From: Alphaproteobacteria bacterium
Lineage (GTDB): Bacteria; Pseudomonadota; Alphaproteobacteria; SP197
Length of the DNA: 64,000 bases
Reading direction: 5' to 3'
Assembly (NCBI GenBank): GCA_964291415.2
Contig: OZ219918.1
Span: 1 to 64,000, forward strand
The notes under the pieces are model-generated. The model saw only the letters and a list, made by a program, of their open reading frames with translations, did not search any database and was not told the origin of the DNA. How positions within the stretch are numbered: the first letter of the stretch is position 1; the number at the start of each line of letters is the position of its first letter. Positions 46,248-52,015 of the stretch are shown piece after piece. The position numbers and the translations under genes are program-made.

Positions 46248-46375
46248 GGCGTTGCACCTTGATGCCGAATGCGGATCCTTGCGGACTGCCGACAGGCAGT
46301 TCGCACGCTATCTCAAGGTCAAAAGACCCCTGTCGTCCAGAGGCCAGCCGAAAAAAAGGGGATTATATACTGAGT

Positions 46376-46405
46376 TTGACAAGCGGCGGCATCTCGCCCT
46401 AGCCT
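46376..46405 (+). promoter_or_regulatory. Putative sigma70 promoter with its -35 inside the left TIR
   Basis: TTGACA (46376-46381), 18-nt spacer, TAGCCT (46400-46405); predicted start near 46412. Confidence 0.5.
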
Positions 46406-46411
46406 CCATCC

Positions 46412-46570
46412 TGCAACGTTACACGGACCCGCGAGTCGGGTCGCCCGCCGAATAGAACAGCCCTCAGACCGGCAAGGGGTAGCTCCCCATGCTTGGCGAA
46501 TAGGCGGGGCTTCACCAATCCGTGTGACGTTGCAACGGCCCGGCACCCGCTGGGCTGGCACACCGGAGGG
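46412..46570 (+). ncRNA. Candidate c4/CI-like antisense leader RNA, copy A
   Basis: Stems 46433-46443/46536-46546 and CCCGCC/GGCGGG with loop GAATAGAACA; 46519-46534 is complementary to 46412-46427; homologous to copy B. Confidence 0.6.
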
Positions 46571-46578
46571 GAGGCTCC

Positions 46579-47973
46579 ATGAATATCAGAAACACGTTAA
46601 CTTCATCGGTGATCGCCGCAGGAATGCTGTTTCTCGCCGCTTGTGGCGGCGGTGGCGGCAGTTCAAGTTCGACGGAGCAACCGACGGTCGGTTTGCCGCC
46701 CAGTGCATCGAACAACGAGTACCGGATACACCTCGGCATCCCAGCGTCTGATGCGAAGCGATCTCCCATCTATCGGACAGGCAACCTGCTTCGCGTCGGC
46801 GTAGATCAAGGGGCTGCACTGGAACGGTTGCCAAAGCTGACGATTCCCGGCTTCCCGGATGTCGAAGTGCGGTACGGCACAATCAGTGACGGCGCGGGCG
46901 GTTCGGCTCTACGCGACTATTTGTCATCGATCGAAGGATCCTATTCGGGCTTGAGCCGCCGGTTGCCAGGTTATGAAGTGCGCGTTATCGGCGCTTCAAC
47001 CGCGGCAGAACGTCGGCGCGTCCTCGCGGCCGTCCAGTTGGTGAACGCCGCCCTGCCGGAGAATGCCAAACTGAGCGTCGGAACGCCACTGCCGGGCTTC
47101 AGCCTCAAGGACACGGTGAATGCGGACGGGCGCTATTTCGGGGCCGGCAGCGAACTGCCGAACACGATTCATGTCGAGTTCACGCCGGAAAGCGAGTTCT
47201 ACGACAGCGACGCCGCTGGCACGTCGTGGGGCGAGTACATGCTTCTGTCACGCGGCGACTTCCCGGCATACACAGACGAGCGCAAGGCCGTGATCCTGAT
47301 AGCCCACGAATTCGTGCACTCGCTCGGGATCGGTGGGCATGTGCCGGAACACTTCGACACGATCATGGAGACTGGCAGCAGGGTCTATGACAATGCCCAG
47401 GGCATCCGACAGCCTGCGTCCTTGCTCTACCCGATCGACCGTGAGGCTGTGCGGGCACTCTACGGACCCTTGCGGAACAGCAACGATCCCAACGATCTCG
47501 GGCCATGGTCCAGCACATCGGAACACTTGTTCGTGGGCAATGAGCATGGCGCGTTCGGCGTCGCAAGCCGCAACGGTTATGCGGAGCCATGGGCGTATGG
47601 AACCACACCGCGAACCAATCTCGCCTCCAACCCGCAACTGTCCGGCACCGTGAACTGGTATGGCGCCCTGGTTGGCTTCACGTCGAACGCCCTACCCATG
47701 GCAGGCGACGCGGGAATCGCCGTTGATCTCACGAACATGGCGGGAACGGCGGCGTTCACGGATCTGACGATCATTTCAATAGACGGTGCGCCGGTTCCGC
47801 AGTGGGCTGACCGAGACCTCCACTACACCATCGCCGTCACCGGCAACACGTTCCGCGAAACCGGAGGCGATGACGGTAGGCTCACCGGCATCTTCGTGGG
47901 CCGTTACCATGAAGCGGCGGGCGGCACGCTGGAGCGGTCCGACTTGTCAGCGGCGTTCGGTGCGGTACGCTGA
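46579..47973 (+). CDS. Putative lipoprotein with a zincin HExxH motif and a C-terminal beta-barrel-like domain
   Basis: Lipobox LAAC plus Gly/Ser linker, AHEFVHSLG, TIM Met-turn-like segment and C-terminal GGTLERSDLSAAFGAVR; GGAGG RBS. Confidence 0.8.
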   Translation: MNIRNTLTSSVIAAGMLFLAACGGGGGSSSSTEQPTVGLPPSASNNEYRIHLGIPASDAKRSPIYRTGNLLRVGVDQGAALERLPKLTIPGFPDVEVRYGTISDGAGGSALRDYLSSIEGSYSGLSRRLPGYEVRVIGASTAAERRRVLAAVQLVNAALPENAKLSVGTPLPGFSLKDTVNADGRYFGAGSELPNTIHVEFTPESEFYDSDAAGTSWGEYMLLSRGDFPAYTDERKAVILIAHEFVHSLGIGGHVPEHFDTIMETGSRVYDNAQGIRQPASLLYPIDREAVRALYGPLRNSNDPNDLGPWSSTSEHLFVGNEHGAFGVASRNGYAEPWAYGTTPRTNLASNPQLSGTVNWYGALVGFTSNALPMAGDAGIAVDLTNMAGTAAFTDLTIISIDGAPVPQWADRDLHYTIAVTGNTFRETGGDDGRLTGIFVGRYHEAAGGTLERSDLSAAFGAVR

Positions 47974-47977
47974 CCAC

Positions 47978-48139
47978 ATGGAGACAGACATGACGGAACA
48001 GACGAAGGGCCCGGACTTGCTCACCTTGGCGATGCGTCGGGTTCAAGCCGAGACGGTCGAAAGACAGGGGCGGGAACCGGAATCCCCGCCCCATGCCGAA
48101 AACGCGTCAGCCGCGGATGCCGCTGACCGTGATGAATGA
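47978..48139 (+). CDS. Hypothetical small protein
   Basis: METDMTEQTKGPDLLTLAMRRVQAE; follows the lipoprotein stop directly, with GGAG before the second ATG. Confidence 0.4.
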   Translation: METDMTEQTKGPDLLTLAMRRVQAETVERQGREPESPPHAENASAADAADRDE

Positions 48140-48325
48140 ACCGTCCATGAGCCGCTGTTCGTTGACCAATCCGTGAAGCAGTCCCCGGCGGATCGCGCCT
48201 ATCACGGTGGTCTCGATCACGTGAGGACTGGCGTCGGGGATCTCGGTGGCGAGGTCATCAACGGTGTTGAATTCTCGGCCTCGGCAGGTCGTGAGAATGC
48301 GTTGTAGAAGGGATGTCTGAGCCAT
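48107..48325 (-). CDS. Hypothetical small protein
   Basis: 72-aa ORF with a strong AAGGAGG RBS. Confidence 0.55.
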   Translation of the reverse strand: MAQTSLLQRILTTCRGREFNTVDDLATEIPDASPHVIETTVIGAIRRGLLHGLVNEQRLMDGSFITVSGIRG

Positions 48326-48413
48326 TCGGGCCTCCTTGAATCGGAGGCCGCATGACCCTATGCTGTAGAAATTGTTGCAGCATCCCGCACGGCCTCCAAA
48401 GCAGCGATGCGGG

Positions 48414-48445
48414 GAAACGGGCGCCCTTGCCGGGGCGCCTGTTTC
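48414..48445. terminator. Stem-loop downstream of the IS1595 transposase A gene
   Basis: GAAACGGGCGCCC / GGGCGCCTGTTTC inverted repeat. Confidence 0.5.
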
Positions 48446-48460
48446 GAATCTGGGATCAGG

Positions 48461-49444
48461 CTAACAGGAACGCGCCCCAGAAGACAATCCGTTGTCCTCG
48501 ATCAAGGCGCGATAGGCCAGATGCTTGCCGATCATGTGTGTGAACGCGGCTTCCATCTGGTCGATGGTGTCGGCGTCGCGCACATTGTGACGACCGGAAA
48601 ACTCGCTGATGTACCGCGCAAGGTGCTTCGGGCTCATCTTGTGATAGGTGCCCTGATAGCCGCGCTTGAGCATGGACCAGAAAGACTCGATGCCGTTGGT
48701 ATGGGCCATCCCACGCACATATTCGCCGGCGGAGTGGTTCACGGCTTCACGGTCGTAGTACGGATCGAGAATGTTGTAGGCACTGGCCTCATCGGTGAAC
48801 AGCTTGGCGCCGAACTCGGCCTTGGCGACCACGACATTCGAGACCGTCAGAGAGTCGGTCTTGTTGACGCGCTGAGCGGAGACGCGATTGGTGGCCCGAT
48901 CCTTCACGCCGACGATCGTCTCTTTGCCGACCGCGCCGCGTCCGCGCAGTTCCGTGCGCTTGCTCTTGGGCATGTTCTTGCGCTTACCGCCGATGAATGT
49001 CTCGTCGGCTTCGACCGGGCCGGTGAACGCGTCGGAGTCGCCATCTTCCCAAGCATCCCGGAGCCGGTGAAGCATGAACCATGCGGTCTTCTGCGTGACT
49101 TTGAGATCGCGGTGGAGCTTCATGCTGCTCACGCCCTTGAGGTTCGTCATGTAGATGTAGACGGCGAACACCCACTTGCGGAGCGGCAAGCGGGAACCCT
49201 GCAACATCGAGCCGGTGCGGACGGAGAAGTAGGAACGGCACGACTTGCACCAGTAGGGCATCGGCTTGGCGCTCGGCACTTCCCTGGTCTCGGTCGATCC
49301 GCAGTGACCGCAATGGCGTTCACCGTTCGGCCAGCGCGTATCCTCGAACCACCTCACCGCCGATGCCTCGTCGGGGAACATATCGGTCAACTCGATGATC
49401 GAGATACCTTCGCGGTGTGACTTGCCCGGTGCTTTCTGTGCCAT
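48461..49444 (-). CDS. IS1595 family transposase
   Basis: Zn ribbon CGHC..CKSC, VEADETFIGG, FTDEASAY, VNHS.GEYV, HTNGIESFWS and YISEF..RHN. Confidence 0.95.
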   Translation of the reverse strand: MAQKAPGKSHREGISIIELTDMFPDEASAVRWFEDTRWPNGERHCGHCGSTETREVPSAKPMPYWCKSCRSYFSVRTGSMLQGSRLPLRKWVFAVYIYMTNLKGVSSMKLHRDLKVTQKTAWFMLHRLRDAWEDGDSDAFTGPVEADETFIGGKRKNMPKSKRTELRGRGAVGKETIVGVKDRATNRVSAQRVNKTDSLTVSNVVVAKAEFGAKLFTDEASAYNILDPYYDREAVNHSAGEYVRGMAHTNGIESFWSMLKRGYQGTYHKMSPKHLARYISEFSGRHNVRDADTIDQMEAAFTHMIGKHLAYRALIEDNGLSSGARSC

Positions 49445-49471
49445 GTCCCGACTCCGTGTCTAACTGACCGG

Positions 49472-49500
49472 AATATAGGGATTCTCGTTGCGCTTGTCAA
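49472..49500 (-). promoter_or_regulatory. Sigma70-like promoter for transposase A
   Basis: Minus strand TTGACA-17 nt-TATATT, with the -35 inside the right TIR. Confidence 0.65.
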
Positions 49501-49612
49501 GTTCAGTATATAATCCCCCAAAGAAAAGGGAATTATACGCCTAACTAGCCAAAGCGCTTGACACCGGCTGGATAATCACCATTATACTAGCCATATCACA
49601 CGGAGTCGTGAG

Positions 49613-50578
49613 ATGGCGCAGAAAGGTCCGGGACGGTCGCACAGAGAAGGGATGACCGTTGTCCAGTTGCTCGGGATGTTCCCCGACGACGCAAGCGCCG
49701 AGGCGTGGTTCGAGGCGCAGAGATGGCCCGAGGGCCGGTTCTGCCCGGACTGCGGTTCGACCAACACCGTGTCGGTCACCAGCCGCAAGCCCATGCCCTA
49801 CCGTTGCCGCGACTGCCGCAATCACTTCTCCGTCCGCAAGGGCACGGTCATGCAGTCAAGCAAGCTCGGATTGCAGAAGTGGGCGATCGCGCTCTACCTG
49901 GCGACGACGGGCATCAAGGGCACGGCCAGCATGAAGGTCTACCGGGATCTCGGTATGCGTCAGGCGACGGCCTGGCACCTCATGCACCGCATCCGCGAAG
50001 CCTTTGACGACGGCGTGAACCTGCCGTTCCCCGGACCCGTCGAGATGGACGAGTCGCACTTCGGCGGCCGCGAGAAGAACAAGCACGGCAACAAAAAACT
50101 GCGCGCCGGCCGTGGTGCCGTCGGCAAGACCACTGTCGCCGGCGTCAAGGATCGCGGCTCCAGGCACGTCAGCGCCGCCGTGGTTCCGGCAACCAACAGG
50201 GAGACGCTTCAGGGCTTCGTGAAGGACCGTGCCGCTGACGGCGCGATGATCTACACCGACGAGCACGGCGCCTATCGGGGCATGGAGAACCACGAGTCGG
50301 TCAGTCACAGCACTGGCGAGTTTGTCCGCGGCATGGCGCACACGAACGGCATCGAGTCGTTCTGGAGCCTGTTGAAACGCGGCTATCACGGCACGTTCCA
50401 CAAGATCAGTGCCAAGCACCTCGACCGCTACGTCCGGGAGTTCGCCGGTCGCAACAACATCCGCGATCTCGACACGCTGGCACAGATGACCGCGCTGGCC
50501 CGTGGCATGGTCGGCAAGCGGCTTCGTTACAGCGACTTGATCGCGGACAATGGATTGCCTTCGGGAGCCCGAAGGTAG
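49613..50578 (+). CDS. IS1595 family transposase
   Basis: CPDC..CRDC, VEMDESHFGG, YTDEHGAY, HTNGIESFWS and YVREFAGRNN. Confidence 0.95.
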   Translation: MAQKGPGRSHREGMTVVQLLGMFPDDASAEAWFEAQRWPEGRFCPDCGSTNTVSVTSRKPMPYRCRDCRNHFSVRKGTVMQSSKLGLQKWAIALYLATTGIKGTASMKVYRDLGMRQATAWHLMHRIREAFDDGVNLPFPGPVEMDESHFGGREKNKHGNKKLRAGRGAVGKTTVAGVKDRGSRHVSAAVVPATNRETLQGFVKDRAADGAMIYTDEHGAYRGMENHESVSHSTGEFVRGMAHTNGIESFWSLLKRGYHGTFHKISAKHLDRYVREFAGRNNIRDLDTLAQMTALARGMVGKRLRYSDLIADNGLPSGARR

Positions 50579-50696
50579 AAGTAACAGCGCTCCGACCAGC
50601 GGCAACTGGCGGAGCGCACAATCAGGCGAGAACCCTCTCGGCAACAACCGTAGCCGAGAGGGCTTTGGCATGTCTAGTTCCGAGTCAACCCACGAA

Positions 50697-50960
50697 TCAT
50701 GTCTCGCCGCTATCAGGGCCGAGATCCCCGACAGTCCCAGCGCGGATATGATCGCGAATATCATCGCACGCGATTGCAATCGCCTCCATCTCAGGGCTCG
50801 TGAAAGCAACGCCCGTCGGGTGCGTAGGGAGGCAATCGAGAATCTCGCACGCCACTTCCGGGTTTCGTTGCATGAGCTCTCCGAACATGAGAAGGACGAG
50901 AGCCTTCAACGCAGTGAGATCGGCTTGAAGCCCGGCGATTCCATCATCGTCTTGCGTCAT
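50697..50960 (-). CDS. Hypothetical protein (passenger)
   Basis: 87-aa ORF after the upstream passenger gene, with a GGAG RBS; an antisense ORF competes for the same region. Confidence 0.45.
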   Translation of the reverse strand: MTQDDDGIAGLQADLTALKALVLLMFGELMQRNPEVACEILDCLPTHPTGVAFTSPEMEAIAIACDDIRDHIRAGTVGDLGPDSGET

Positions 50961-50981
50961 CTCTAGCGATCACTCCAACAG

Positions 50982-51362
50982 CTAGTAGAACGAGAACTCC
51001 GTGATCCTCCAGCGACGTTCTTCTCCGCCCTCCACGCATTGGGCGATGCCGTAGAAGTAGAGTCGGAGCGGGCCACCATACATGTTGAGGGTGTCAAGGT
51101 GCGATACGAGTTCGTATCTGTCGCCACTCTTGCGAACTGGTTTCTCGAAGGCGAAATCCGCCTCATCAGGAGCGTATAACTGGCCTTTGGCATGGCGCTC
51201 TATGATGACCTTGGCGGCCCATTTGGCGTCGTCCGCATCGCAACTTGCCCGGCTCTCGGCGGTCTTGGCACACATGGCAATGACACCGCCGATCGCGACA
51301 AAGATCGCCACCAAAACGATCACAATGACGGTTTGCTCGTTGGGACCTCTACCATTGGACAT
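50982..51362 (-). CDS. Hypothetical membrane-anchored protein (passenger)
   Basis: N-terminal TM segment VIVIVLVAIFVAIGGVIAM, then LYAPDEADF..SHLDTLNMYGG.LR; GGAG RBS. Confidence 0.7.
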   Translation of the reverse strand: MSNGRGPNEQTVIVIVLVAIFVAIGGVIAMCAKTAESRASCDADDAKWAAKVIIERHAKGQLYAPDEADFAFEKPVRKSGDRYELVSHLDTLNMYGGPLRLYFYGIAQCVEGGEERRWRITEFSFY

Positions 51363-51435
51363 CTTGCACTCCACTCGCTGGCGAGCGGCGGGCTGGGCAA
51401 GACACCCTTGTCGTCAATCTCCTGTCGTGTGTTAC

Positions 51436-51587
51436 CCCATGGTCATTGCCGCTCGGTTTGCGACCCGGCGGGATGCCGGGCCGGTCGCCAAACAACCATG
51501 GGTTCAAGGTTCCCGCTGATTTCCGCACGAGGCGGTGTTGTATTCACGGGCAGCCCGACACAGGGCGTCCCATGGTTGGTTTGGCGA
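51436..51587 (-). ncRNA. Candidate c4/CI-like antisense leader RNA, copy B
   Basis: Stem 51551-51561/51473-51483 and loop GAATACAACA (51545-51536); segment 51483-51502 is complementary to 51569-51587 and partly to 51436-51465; homologous to copy A. Confidence 0.6.
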
Positions 51588-51594
51588 TGGTGAA

Positions 51595-51667
51595 AGCGTG
51601 GGTGTGCGGTTGGTGGGAGTCAACCACTATTAGATCAGTTGCCTAGCCGTAGGTCGTGCCATAGGAT
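51595..51667. promoter_or_regulatory. Divergent sigma70-like promoter pair
   Basis: Minus strand: TTGACT(51623-51618)-17 nt-CACGCT, driving the RNA leader. Plus strand: TTGCCT(51639-51644)-17 nt-TAGGAT, ending 6 nt before ATG 51674. Confidence 0.45.
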
Positions 51668-51673
51668 GGCGGC

Positions 51674-51841
51674 ATGACGGACAAGCCAGAACCTCGGCCG
51701 CGCGGTCGGCCACCGAAGCCCATGCCGAAGATCGACGCCACTCCGGAGCGAGCGGCCCAGGCGATCTTCTCGGCCGTCAAGAAGCCGGACCCGTCTGTCC
51801 GGATCCAGAAAGCCTACGAGCGGAAGAAGCCTAGTCAGTGA
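51674..51841 (+). CDS. 55-aa AT-hook-like microprotein (absent from the ORF track)
   Basis: MTDKPEPRPRGRPPKPMPKIDATPERAAQAIFSAVKKPDPSVRIQKAYERKKPSQ*; PRGRP motif; probably leaderless. Confidence 0.65.
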   Translation: MTDKPEPRPRGRPPKPMPKIDATPERAAQAIFSAVKKPDPSVRIQKAYERKKPSQ

Positions 51842-52015
51842 GCAACACGCCCAAAGCACCCACACCTAGCCCATCCTCGGCAAACGCCAAGCAGTCACCG
51901 CCTGCGGCAGTCAATCCGCCGAAGCCTCCGCTGGTTATCGGCGGGCGAGTGGAGAAGCACGAAGCGCCATCTGGCTAGTTAGGCGTATAATTCCCAAAAA
52001 AAACGTCCGTTTGTG

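Follow-up and report, generated by a model that had tools for sequence, protein, structure and literature searches.

Copy-specific leader RNAs of a divergent c4/sRNA-Xcc1 branch, predicted to lock their own 5′ ends, precede the passenger genes of two adjacent IS1595 transposons

We analyzed a 64,000-nucleotide stretch of DNA from an Alphaproteobacteria genome (contig OZ219918.1, positions 1 to 64,000; hereafter the window), in which two adjacent IS1595-family transposons each carry a structured RNA in the 5′ leader of a passenger gene. These two RNAs, leaders A and B, are members of a large and unannotated family related to the c4 and sRNA-Xcc1 antisense RNAs. In each of them, a copy-specific segment pairs with the 5′ end of its own predicted transcript, forming a helix (the lock) that competes with the c4-like closing stem (P1) of the same molecule.

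The two transposons, element A (46358-49518) and element B (49528-51995), lie back to back with 9 nt between them. An inverted-repeat search delimited element A by terminal inverted repeats (TIRs) of 28 nt (46358-46385 and 49491-49518; 93% complementary) and element B by TIRs of 24 nt (49528-49551 and 51972-51995; 100% complementary), and the two TIR pairs are dissimilar in sequence. Each element encodes a transposase with DDE_Tnp_IS1595 and Zn_ribbon_IS1595 domains, on the minus strand in element A (48461-49444; DDE_Tnp_IS1595 1.2e-36; promoter TTGACA-17-TATATT at 49500-49472) and on the plus strand in element B (49613-50578; DDE_Tnp_IS1595 2.9e-36; promoter 49558-49585). Cargo A (46579-47973, plus strand) is a 464-aa predicted lipoprotein with a LAAC-GGGGG lipobox region and an HExxH motif, and cargo B (50985-51362, minus strand) is a predicted small membrane protein of 126 aa with a hydrophobic segment at the N-terminus. 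A Pfam search found no family for either cargo protein, and their alignment reaches 17% identity, as for unrelated sequences. With a DDE_Tnp_IS1595 transposase between TIRs and extra genes inside, both are IS1595 elements with passenger genes, and one leader copy stands directly 5′ of each cargo gene on the cargo strand (plus in A, minus in B). The picture that an earlier, sequence-only reading of the window had drawn, with homologous leaders sharing one fold in adjacent IS1595 transposons of different TIRs and unrelated cargo, is confirmed.

The A-rich flanks of the elements (46350-46357, GAAAAAAA; 49519-49527, C followed by AAAGAAAA; 51996-52003, AAAAAAAA) suggest successive insertions into one A-rich target. 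These three 8-nt flanks are only loosely similar, and no clean 8-bp target duplications are readable.

Leader A (plus strand) is preceded by a predicted sigma-70-type promoter (46376-46405) consisting of TTGACA (46376-46381), an 18-nt spacer and the -10-like TAGCCT (46400-46405), with a predicted start at about 46412-46413; this promoter was absent from the list returned by a simple promoter scan. The 5′ arm, GCAACGUUACACGGA (46413-46427), is followed by the 5′ strand of P1, GUCGGGUCG (46435-46443), which has an alternative partner at 46427-46431 in a small hairpin, Pa. The P2 domain (46444-46508) comprises an outer stem CCCGCC/GGCGGG (46444-46449 with 46503-46508), an internal loop (GAAUAGAACA at 46450-46459 opposite GAAUA at 46498-46502) and, beyond it, an apical hairpin, GGGGUAGCUCCCC. 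The 3′ arm, UCCGUGUGACGUUGC (46519-46533), is the copy-specific "antisense" segment and pairs with the 5′ arm. The P1 3′ strand, CGGCCCGGC (46536-46544), and the tail ACCC close the RNA (46536-46548), the strand having an alternative partner at 46549-46555 in a second hairpin, Pt. TTGACA occurs within the TIR at both ends of element A (46376-46381 and 49495-49500), serving at the left end as the -35 of the cargo leader and at the other as the -35 of the transposase promoter. Outside the window, a promoter within a TIR as in leader A was found only at loci L020 and L075, and the remaining short inverted matches were chance-like.

Leader B (minus strand) carries the -35-like hexamer TTGACT (51618-51623) 37 nt before its 5′ arm, a spacing equal to that of leader A and near the peak for the family. 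Its 5′ arm, CGCCAAACCAACCAUGGG (51569-51586), pairs with 51502-51486 in the copy-specific 3′ arm, CCCAUGGUUGUUUGGCG (51486-51502). The P1 5′ strand, GUCGGGCUG (51551-51559), pairs with 51483-51475, and the intervening P2 domain (51512-51550) is a short form with an inner stem CCCGU/GCGGG and an internal loop GAAUACAACA/AAAUCA. The P1 3′ strand is followed by the tail AUCC (together 51471-51483). About 70 nt before the cargo start, a mini-open reading frame (51432-51446; Met-Thr-Met-Gly-stop) overlaps 8 nt that repeat part of the 5′ arm. It is reminiscent of icd, the small open reading frame (ORF) that couples c4 control to ant in phage P1.

Comparison of the two leaders reveals a common core, namely a 9-bp outer stem formed by GUCGGGYYG with CGGCCCGGC, two U-G pairs included, and the internal loop GAAUAnAACA opposite GAAUA (A) or AAAUCA (B). 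The variable segment, flanked by the inner stem on one side and by the 3′ strand of the outer stem on the other, is unrelated in sequence between A and B, and each copy pairs with its own 5′ region: 46519-46533 with 46413-46427 in A (15 bp, one G-U), and 51502-51486 with 51586-51569 in B (17 bp, one bulge). Both 5′ partners start 37 nt past the first base of the TTGAC hexamer, where a sigma-70 promoter would initiate, so the 5′ arm lies at the predicted transcript start. Relative to dinucleotide shuffles, the folding z-scores are -3.2 (A) and -5.0 (B) with the 5′ arm and -0.5 and -1.2 without it.

To assess this copy-specific pairing across the family, we compared each 5′ region with its own and with foreign variable regions in the 101 homologues, out of 114 unique sequences, that have a recognizable 3′ strand; the comparison was alignment-free because MAFFT leaves the arms unaligned. 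Pairing with the own variable region reached -27.8 +/- 4.6 kcal/mol, versus -13.7 +/- 3.8 kcal/mol with those of other copies, and 94% of own but 6% of mismatched pairs reached -20 kcal/mol or lower. This cognate preference upholds the claim, made from the two window copies, that each copy-specific segment is complementary to the first bases predicted to be transcribed. The lock helix averages 16.8 bp (range 11-22), with 7.8% G-U pairs. What is conserved in the arms is their pairing, not their sequence. The same specificity separates copies residing together, with -26.9 kcal/mol between own arms and -15.7 kcal/mol across copies; the 4 cross-reacting ordered pairs among 24 correspond to two duplicate pairs. 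The co-resident copies with identical arms are L048 and L074 (on one contig) and L009 and L068 (in one genome). The passenger proteins of L048 and L074 share an N-terminus and diverge beyond it, suggesting a recent duplication with recombination inside the cargo.

The position of the lock relative to the promoter is likewise shared. At 28-48 nt before the 5′ arm, 94 of 135 leaders carry a hexamer resembling TTGAC (an exact match in 52), compared with 0 of 135 in a control window, and its distance to the 5′ arm is 34-36 nt in 65 of the 94. Because the 5′ arm follows this -35-like element at promoter spacing, the helix includes the very 5′ end of the predicted transcript. The arrangement of leaders A and B recurs in more than 130 homologous leaders of other genomes, with copy-specific arm pairing, and is therefore not a product of chance. 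A DNA-level element, such as a recombination site or an attC-like hairpin, was considered and rejected: P1 keeps U-G at two positions (100/136 and 91/136 leaders), which would become A-C mismatches on the other strand, and a conserved structured core separates the arms.

The two arms and the two P1 strands interleave along the RNA in a pseudoknot topology with almost no linker, and we therefore treated the arm helix and P1 as alternatives. In minimum free energy (MFE) folds of 135 full leaders, the arm helix is predicted in 119 and P1 in 2; when the RNA is trimmed to the interval from the P1 start to the tail end, P1 forms in 103 of 135. In the predicted locked fold, the P1 5′ strand is held in Pa with the CCCG just upstream, and the 3′ strand is held in Pt with downstream sequence. 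The trimmed RNA adopts a predicted fold like that of sRNA-Xcc1 and c4, with a 9-bp closing stem followed by R-C-C-A/C and a single-stranded 3′ arm. The sequence-only reading had regarded the upstream pairing as a silenced target. The contiguous helix of about 17 bp looks instead like a cis lock of the primary transcript, one that excludes the c4-like fold.

Both predicted folds, the lock and P1, are conserved. Each of the nine P1 positions forms a canonical or G-U pair in 89-100% of the 136 leaders, and one pair is compensatory, being C-G in most copies and G-C in L050, L062 and L067. Eight metagenome variants have a P1 strand that starts with GCC rather than GUC, and Pa covaries in 7 of them: the upstream partner becomes CUCGGC, CCGGC or UCGGU, and the hairpin is kept or lengthened. 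An RNAalifold consensus of a MAFFT alignment of 111 sequences consists of P1 and the outer P2 stem, whose pairs are retained in 98-111 of the 111, and the GAAUA and AACA columns are invariant, partly as a product of the search pattern. Of the four tail positions after P1 (136 leaders), position 1 is a purine in 88%, positions 2 and 3 are C in 85% and 89%, respectively, and position 4 is A or C in 89%; 65 of the 136 tails read exactly RCCA. The combination of a stem and a trailing RCCA has the shape of a tRNA acceptor end. No intrinsic terminator was found on the leader strands, and a U-run after Pt is missing in both window copies.

Homologues beyond the two window copies, which the sequence-only reading had proposed to seek, are numerous. 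An exact-motif scan covering one genome per species located the same RNA on at least 118 genome contigs, this first motif also matched 4 viral contigs, and a second motif with the outer stem left free matched 55 metagenome contigs. Since such scans favor conserved cores, these counts are lower bounds and no census. Locus L090, a chance-like match inside a coding region, was left out of later counts, and loci lacking the needed flanks were excluded test by test, so that n varies accordingly. By record title, the genome matches are mostly metagenome-assembled genomes of Alphaproteobacteria but span several phyla, with further titles naming Gammaproteobacteria, Pseudomonadales, Vicinamibacterales, Marinacidobacterales, Binatota, Sphingomonas and Phenylobacterium. 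The source genome holds exactly two copies by motif scan, leaders A and B. Among 60 relatives, the distribution is patchy: of the 22 genomes that belong to the same genus, 7 contain the motif (1-3 copies per genome), as against 0 of 10 genomes from other genera of the family and 1 of 28 genomes from other families of the class. A reversed-pattern control on the same 60 relatives gave zero matches.

The association with IS1595 is real but partial, concerning about 20% of copies. A convergent downstream IS1595 transposase, as arranged in the window, accompanies 26 of 170 copies, or 13 of the 66 that have at least 4.5 kb of downstream sequence, and a transposase in another arrangement accompanies 11 more copies. 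The description of the module as a feature of IS1595 consequently does not extend to the family as a whole.

Downstream of the leader lie unrelated genes that lean toward envelope (exported or surface) proteins. Among the 82 distinct first ORFs of at least 60 aa, 52 encode a hydrophobic N-terminus and 30 a lipobox-like motif. The 82 proteins match 38 Pfam families in total, and most of them have no Pfam match at all. Examples include TbpB-like lipoprotein barrels (6), glycosyltransferase family 25 (5), helix-turn-helix proteins (5), outer-membrane barrels (3) and rhodanese (3), as well as CsgG, matrixin and a nuclease; no antirepressor family is present among the 25 of these 38 families that were listed. 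Relatives of cargo A (46-64% identity in alignment) stand behind the same leader at L017, L024, L039, L074, L075 and L112.

To place the leaders among known RNAs, we searched Rfam, which at gathering scores gave no match in the whole window. Below the cut-off, both A and B align to positions 1-87 of the 87 model positions of RF02221 (sRNA-Xcc1) and share its architecture: a closing stem, an internal-loop stem with AAUAcAAnA/GAAUA, a variable region and an ACC-type tail. Thus, the families that the sequence-only reading had named for an Rfam check, including C4, c4-a1b1 and isrK, are unmatched, and a related family emerges in their stead, under its cut-off. Known ribozymes (the hairpin ribozyme and others), riboswitches and thermometers were rejected, as no Rfam match at E <=10 was found besides sRNA-Xcc1, cyano-S1, ROSE_3 and TEG147, all of them far under their cut-offs at A and B. 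One viral contig carrying the leader-family motif, L224 (4609-4693, minus strand), passes RF02221 at 55.2 bits. Another, L222, is intermediate, the 15-nt loop of its variable region matching both an upstream site and a site abutting the Shine-Dalgarno sequence (SD).

A scan of viral contigs with an RF02221-consensus motif hit at least 96 contigs (L125-L220), and 14 of the 15 loci tested pass the RF02221 cut-off at 60-77.5 bits; one example is the RNA at L127:3704-3790 (minus strand). In these prophage RNAs, two parts, the third-hairpin loop and the junction that precedes the closing stem, are complementary to two sites that lie just ahead of the SD of the next gene or overlap it, and a further copy of the loop target lies upstream. 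Across 65 such RNAs, the variable region pairs better with its own flanks than with those of others, both in the downstream 90 nt (-21.1 versus -16.9 kcal/mol) and in the upstream 128 nt (-29.1 versus -22.1 kcal/mol). The following gene is of antirepressor type (AntA, P22_AR, Rha, KilA-N, Bro-N) in 9 of 10 cases tested. In phage P1, the annotated order is promoter, a1 b1, c4, a2 b2 and icd-ant. The complements at the SD, the upstream target copy and the antirepressor gene that follows therefore identify the prophage RF02221 RNAs as having the c4 layout of phage P1. The consensus sequences of C4 and RF02221 also both finish with the closing stem and then ACC. The c4 analogy drawn by the sequence-only reading is largely right on the strength of the full-length RF02221 alignment and these c4-like prophage relatives. 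Its limits are that the family is not specific to IS1595, that the arm pairing looks like a cis lock, and that a target at the ribosome-binding site is weakly supported. We conclude that leaders A and B are a divergent, widely spread and unannotated branch of the c4/sRNA-Xcc1 class of cis-encoded antisense RNAs. This branch appears to have moved from the control of phage antirepressors to the 5′ leaders of mobile genes, mostly for exported or surface proteins.

The work of Chen and colleagues in 2011 reportedly described sRNA-Xcc1 as integron-encoded, transferred by transposons and plasmids, and trans-acting. The accessible literature on this RNA presents a trans-acting, virulence-linked small RNA (sRNA) with many predicted targets. 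The original molecule measures 88 nt by end mapping and Northern blot (PMC2996969). Other reports place RF02221 matches next to C4 and isrK matches in Xylella (PMC12189769), upstream of an ORF6N-domain gene in APSE phages (bioRxiv 10.1101/2020.03.17.996009), and upstream of symE in the same orientation in Xanthomonas integron cassettes (bioRxiv 10.1101/2025.06.18.660453). In light of the prophage arrangement, a c4-like regulator of the adjacent gene may be the better description of sRNA-Xcc1.

These features suggest a model in which transcription would start at the 5′ arm and the full leader would fold into the lock, with about 17 bp between the 5′ and 3′ arms and the closing-stem strands held in Pa and Pt. 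Removal or occupation of the 5′ arm might then allow RNase P to cut at the 5′ end of the tRNA-like stem with its RCCA, a cleavage that would release about 114 nt of RNA from leader A or about 89 nt from leader B. The predicted lengths agree with the processed size of roughly 90-115 nt that had been anticipated from the two copies. The exposed 3′ arm of the freed RNA could then pair with the 5′ arm of new transcripts and, in addition, with a shortened copy of the 5′ arm beside the SD of the passenger gene. The leader family has the features of an RNase P substrate in its 9-bp stem and RCCA-like tail. For c4, RNase P cuts the precursor at the 5′ end of the closing stem, the b′ loop blocks the ribosome-binding site (RBS) and the a′ segment contributes specificity (PMC5320573). 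By analogy, the passenger gene would be down-regulated by its own processed leader RNA through an address private to each copy, a reading that we consider about as likely as not.

The downstream target of this model was assessed at the RBS. In 65 leaders with non-redundant arms, the 3′ arm pairs more strongly with its own RBS window (-35 to +8) than with those of others (-14.95 versus -13.78 kcal/mol; permutation test, z = -3.65, p = 0.0002), and in 84 leaders more strongly with its own untranslated region (UTR) than with the reversed UTR (-16.14 versus -14.58 kcal/mol, p = 0.0008). A motif of GCRAY, 0-12 nt and SGGR, present in 19 of 84 UTRs and 3 of 84 reversed ones, resembles both ends of the 5′ arm without its middle. 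The signal is clear in leader A, where the variable region and its flank pair across the whole SD region (46550-46574), in a site ending 5 nt before the start codon, at -29.6 kcal/mol, with 0 of 300 shuffles as good. For the leader family, an RBS-proximal complement is weakly supported: the cognate signal is significant and its detectability slight.

Several results weigh against regulation by a processed leader RNA. At the RBS, the cognate advantage amounts to about 1.2 kcal/mol, with 9 of 65 leaders in the best 5%, and z-scores below -1.64 relative to shuffles occur in 24% of the 84 leaders. The strong value of leader A was obtained with a 33-nt segment including part of the P2 stem. The best site of leader B (-25.0 kcal/mol, 3% of 300 shuffles as good) covers the mini-ORF and lies 42 nt ahead of the cargo start codon. 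Energetically, the MFE of the full leader beats the best P1-forced fold by 17.6 +/- 5.9 kcal/mol, and a gap of this size in favor of the lock means that release of the sRNA would need a trigger. Strand preference is modest for the lock helix, which is better on the sense strand in 79 of 136 leaders. Pairwise identity in the arms (0.57-0.59; shuffled 0.45) is close to that of the adjoining linker (0.51; control 0.43). The exchangeable specificity proposed by the sequence-only reading accordingly shows no sign of selection, and diversifying selection on the arms was set aside as unsupported, the arms being no more variable than unconstrained linkers. Finally, the leaders miss the RF02221 cut-off of 53 (A, 27.5 bits, E 0.009; B, 30.8 bits, E 0.0013), as do all 17 other family loci tested (0 matches), and C4, c4-2, c4-a1b1 and isrK gave no match at E <=10 in 46250-46650 and 51350-51700, in a search that detected C4 at 68.8 bits and c4-a1b1 at 51 bits in phage P1 as the positive control.

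Some of these results would sit comfortably with a leader that acts purely in cis, its 5′-end helix guarding the mRNA from 5′-end-dependent decay or serving as an RNase III-type processing stalk. Such a leader would give a mobile gene a host-independent, stable transcript, and its c4-like fold would be inherited baggage with no antisense regulation. The lock is predicted in 119 of 135 full leaders, 17.6 kcal/mol ahead of P1 folds, and begins at the predicted first transcribed base; its arms drift in sequence like an unconstrained linker with only pairing retained; the downstream target signal is weak; and functionally unrelated passengers suit a generic expression module. However, a protective hairpin has no need of the internal loop GAAUAnAACA/GAAUA that the leaders have in common with RF02221, P1 strands outside Pa and Pt remain conserved together with the R-C-C-A/C tail, and the compensatory P1 pair and the trimmed P1 fold in 103 of 135 leaders are hard to explain if that fold is unused. 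The cognate complementarity at the RBS, weak but significant, speaks in the same direction, and we view a purely structural role as possible but not probable.

The conservation of two mutually exclusive folds in a 5′ leader directly ahead of the SD would also be expected if the P2 internal loop bound a ligand or protein that chooses between the lock and the alternative fold, the arms being merely a switching helix and the factor setting translation or stability of the passenger mRNA. The GAAUA/AACA loop, invariant in 111 sequences (partly owing to the search pattern), fits such a riboswitch-like device. We nevertheless think it quite unlikely, given that the downstream genes share no common pathway (38 Pfam families among 82 proteins), unlike those of metabolite riboswitches, that the same loop occurs in phage RF02221 RNAs acting through antisense pairing, that a 17.6 kcal/mol gap is far above the usual reach of ligand binding, and that no terminator-like U-run follows Pt in either window copy. 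Even less likely, in our judgment, is an sRNA acting in trans on a target elsewhere, whether host mRNAs or the transposase mRNA of its own or the neighboring IS1595 element, which would couple the passenger to the control of transposition. In its favor, sRNA-Xcc1 is reportedly trans-acting (Chen and colleagues, 2011), and leader A 46512-46527 is complementary at 14 of 16 positions to 49596-49611, just before the start codon of the element B transposase. This complementarity may be due to chance: such matches are common in the 6-kb region, which contains 29 inverted pairs, the 25 longest each of at least 14 nt. Moreover, about 80% of copies have no IS1595 transposase nearby, and every 3′ arm finds its best complement in the 5′ arm of the same leader. 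The idea that a conserved transposase RBS is the shared target was likewise unsupported, these regions differing across 19 elements. The transposase leader of element A itself also carries the ACACGGAG core.

Regulation by the processed leader RNA, if it operates, would open a further interpretation that we regard as unlikely, namely that the leader times the expression of horizontally moving genes as a portable, self-addressed device. On entry into a naive cell, the locked leader would permit translation of the passenger. As processed leader RNA accumulates, it would titrate the 5′ arm of new transcripts and pair at the SD, and expression would drop to a low level, independent of copy number and without a host regulator. 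With a 17-nt address specific to each copy, several modules could share a genome without cross-talk. Were this true, mobile surface-protein genes would have taken over the logic of phage immunity as a general means of control.

Collectively, these results describe a large RNA family missed by standard annotation, the window and 17 further loci scoring under the Rfam gathering thresholds, and, with sRNA-Xcc1 as the link, connect it to phage immunity RNAs of the c4 class. They suggest that c4-type antisense control extends past antirepressor genes and has been reused before diverse genes, mostly for exported or surface proteins and some of them on IS1595. The c4/sRNA-Xcc1 class was already known; the self-locking architecture and the gene context are new. 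In the accessible literature on sRNA-Xcc1, c4-type RNAs and IS1595 passengers, the leader family, the lock helix and a c4-like reading of sRNA-Xcc1 are not described. Two exclusive folds and a private 17-bp address provide an easily testable model of RNA-only control that travels with a gene.

Among named systems, sRNA-Xcc1 (RF02221) is collinear with the leaders over its full length, with a 9-bp closing stem, an internal-loop stem, a variable region and the closing stem followed by ACC. Both also reside on mobile DNA upstream of a gene in the same orientation, and the 88 nt measured for sRNA-Xcc1 compare with the 89 nt predicted for leader B. The leaders differ in that the long form of leader A adds an apical hairpin in P2, and in the variable region, which in sRNA-Xcc1 is a hairpin loop plus junction and in the leader family one contiguous strand of 15-19 nt that extends right up to the closing stem and pairs with the 5′ end of the transcript. 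They also precede mostly genes for exported proteins, not antirepressors or symE.

With c4 of phages P1 and P7 (C4, RF01695; c4-a1b1, RF03163; clan CL00128), the leaders share their location in the leader of the operon that would be controlled, the closing stem followed by ACC, an antisense segment just 5′ of the 3′ strand of that stem, and a specificity that varies between copies. Both have an upstream complementary copy close to where transcription starts; the second complementary copy of c4, located at the RBS of the gene that follows, has a weakly supported counterpart in the leader family. Where c4 uses two short sites (7 and 8 nt), the leader family has a single uninterrupted helix of about 17 bp, incompatible with the c4-like fold, and its upstream site lies about 10 nt from the RNA body rather than about 70-90 nt as in c4. 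It also stands outside any phage immunity context, the window cargo being a lipoprotein and a small membrane protein. IsrK (RF01394) resembles the leaders in having an upstream segment complementary to the antisense RNA, and its model overlaps a1/b1 in phage P1. However, segments of the IsrK type are terminated by a hairpin and U-run of their own and may exist as separate RNAs, whereas the leader 5′ arm lies 10 nt from the core.

Among the titles and abstract openings listed for the literature on IS1595 passenger genes, none mentions a leader RNA. Among RNAs of other transposons, RNA-OUT of IS10 is a transcript from the strand opposite the 5′ end of the transposase gene that controls the transposase by pairing at its RBS. 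Like RNA-OUT, the leaders are small transposon-encoded RNAs for which pairing at an RBS is proposed, here by analogy; unlike it, they are co-linear with a passenger gene and are found mostly outside IS1595 elements. Elements A and B themselves resemble known IS1595 elements with passenger genes in their family-typical TIRs, their DDE_Tnp_IS1595 transposases and the internal genes unrelated to transposition, before which the leaders stand.

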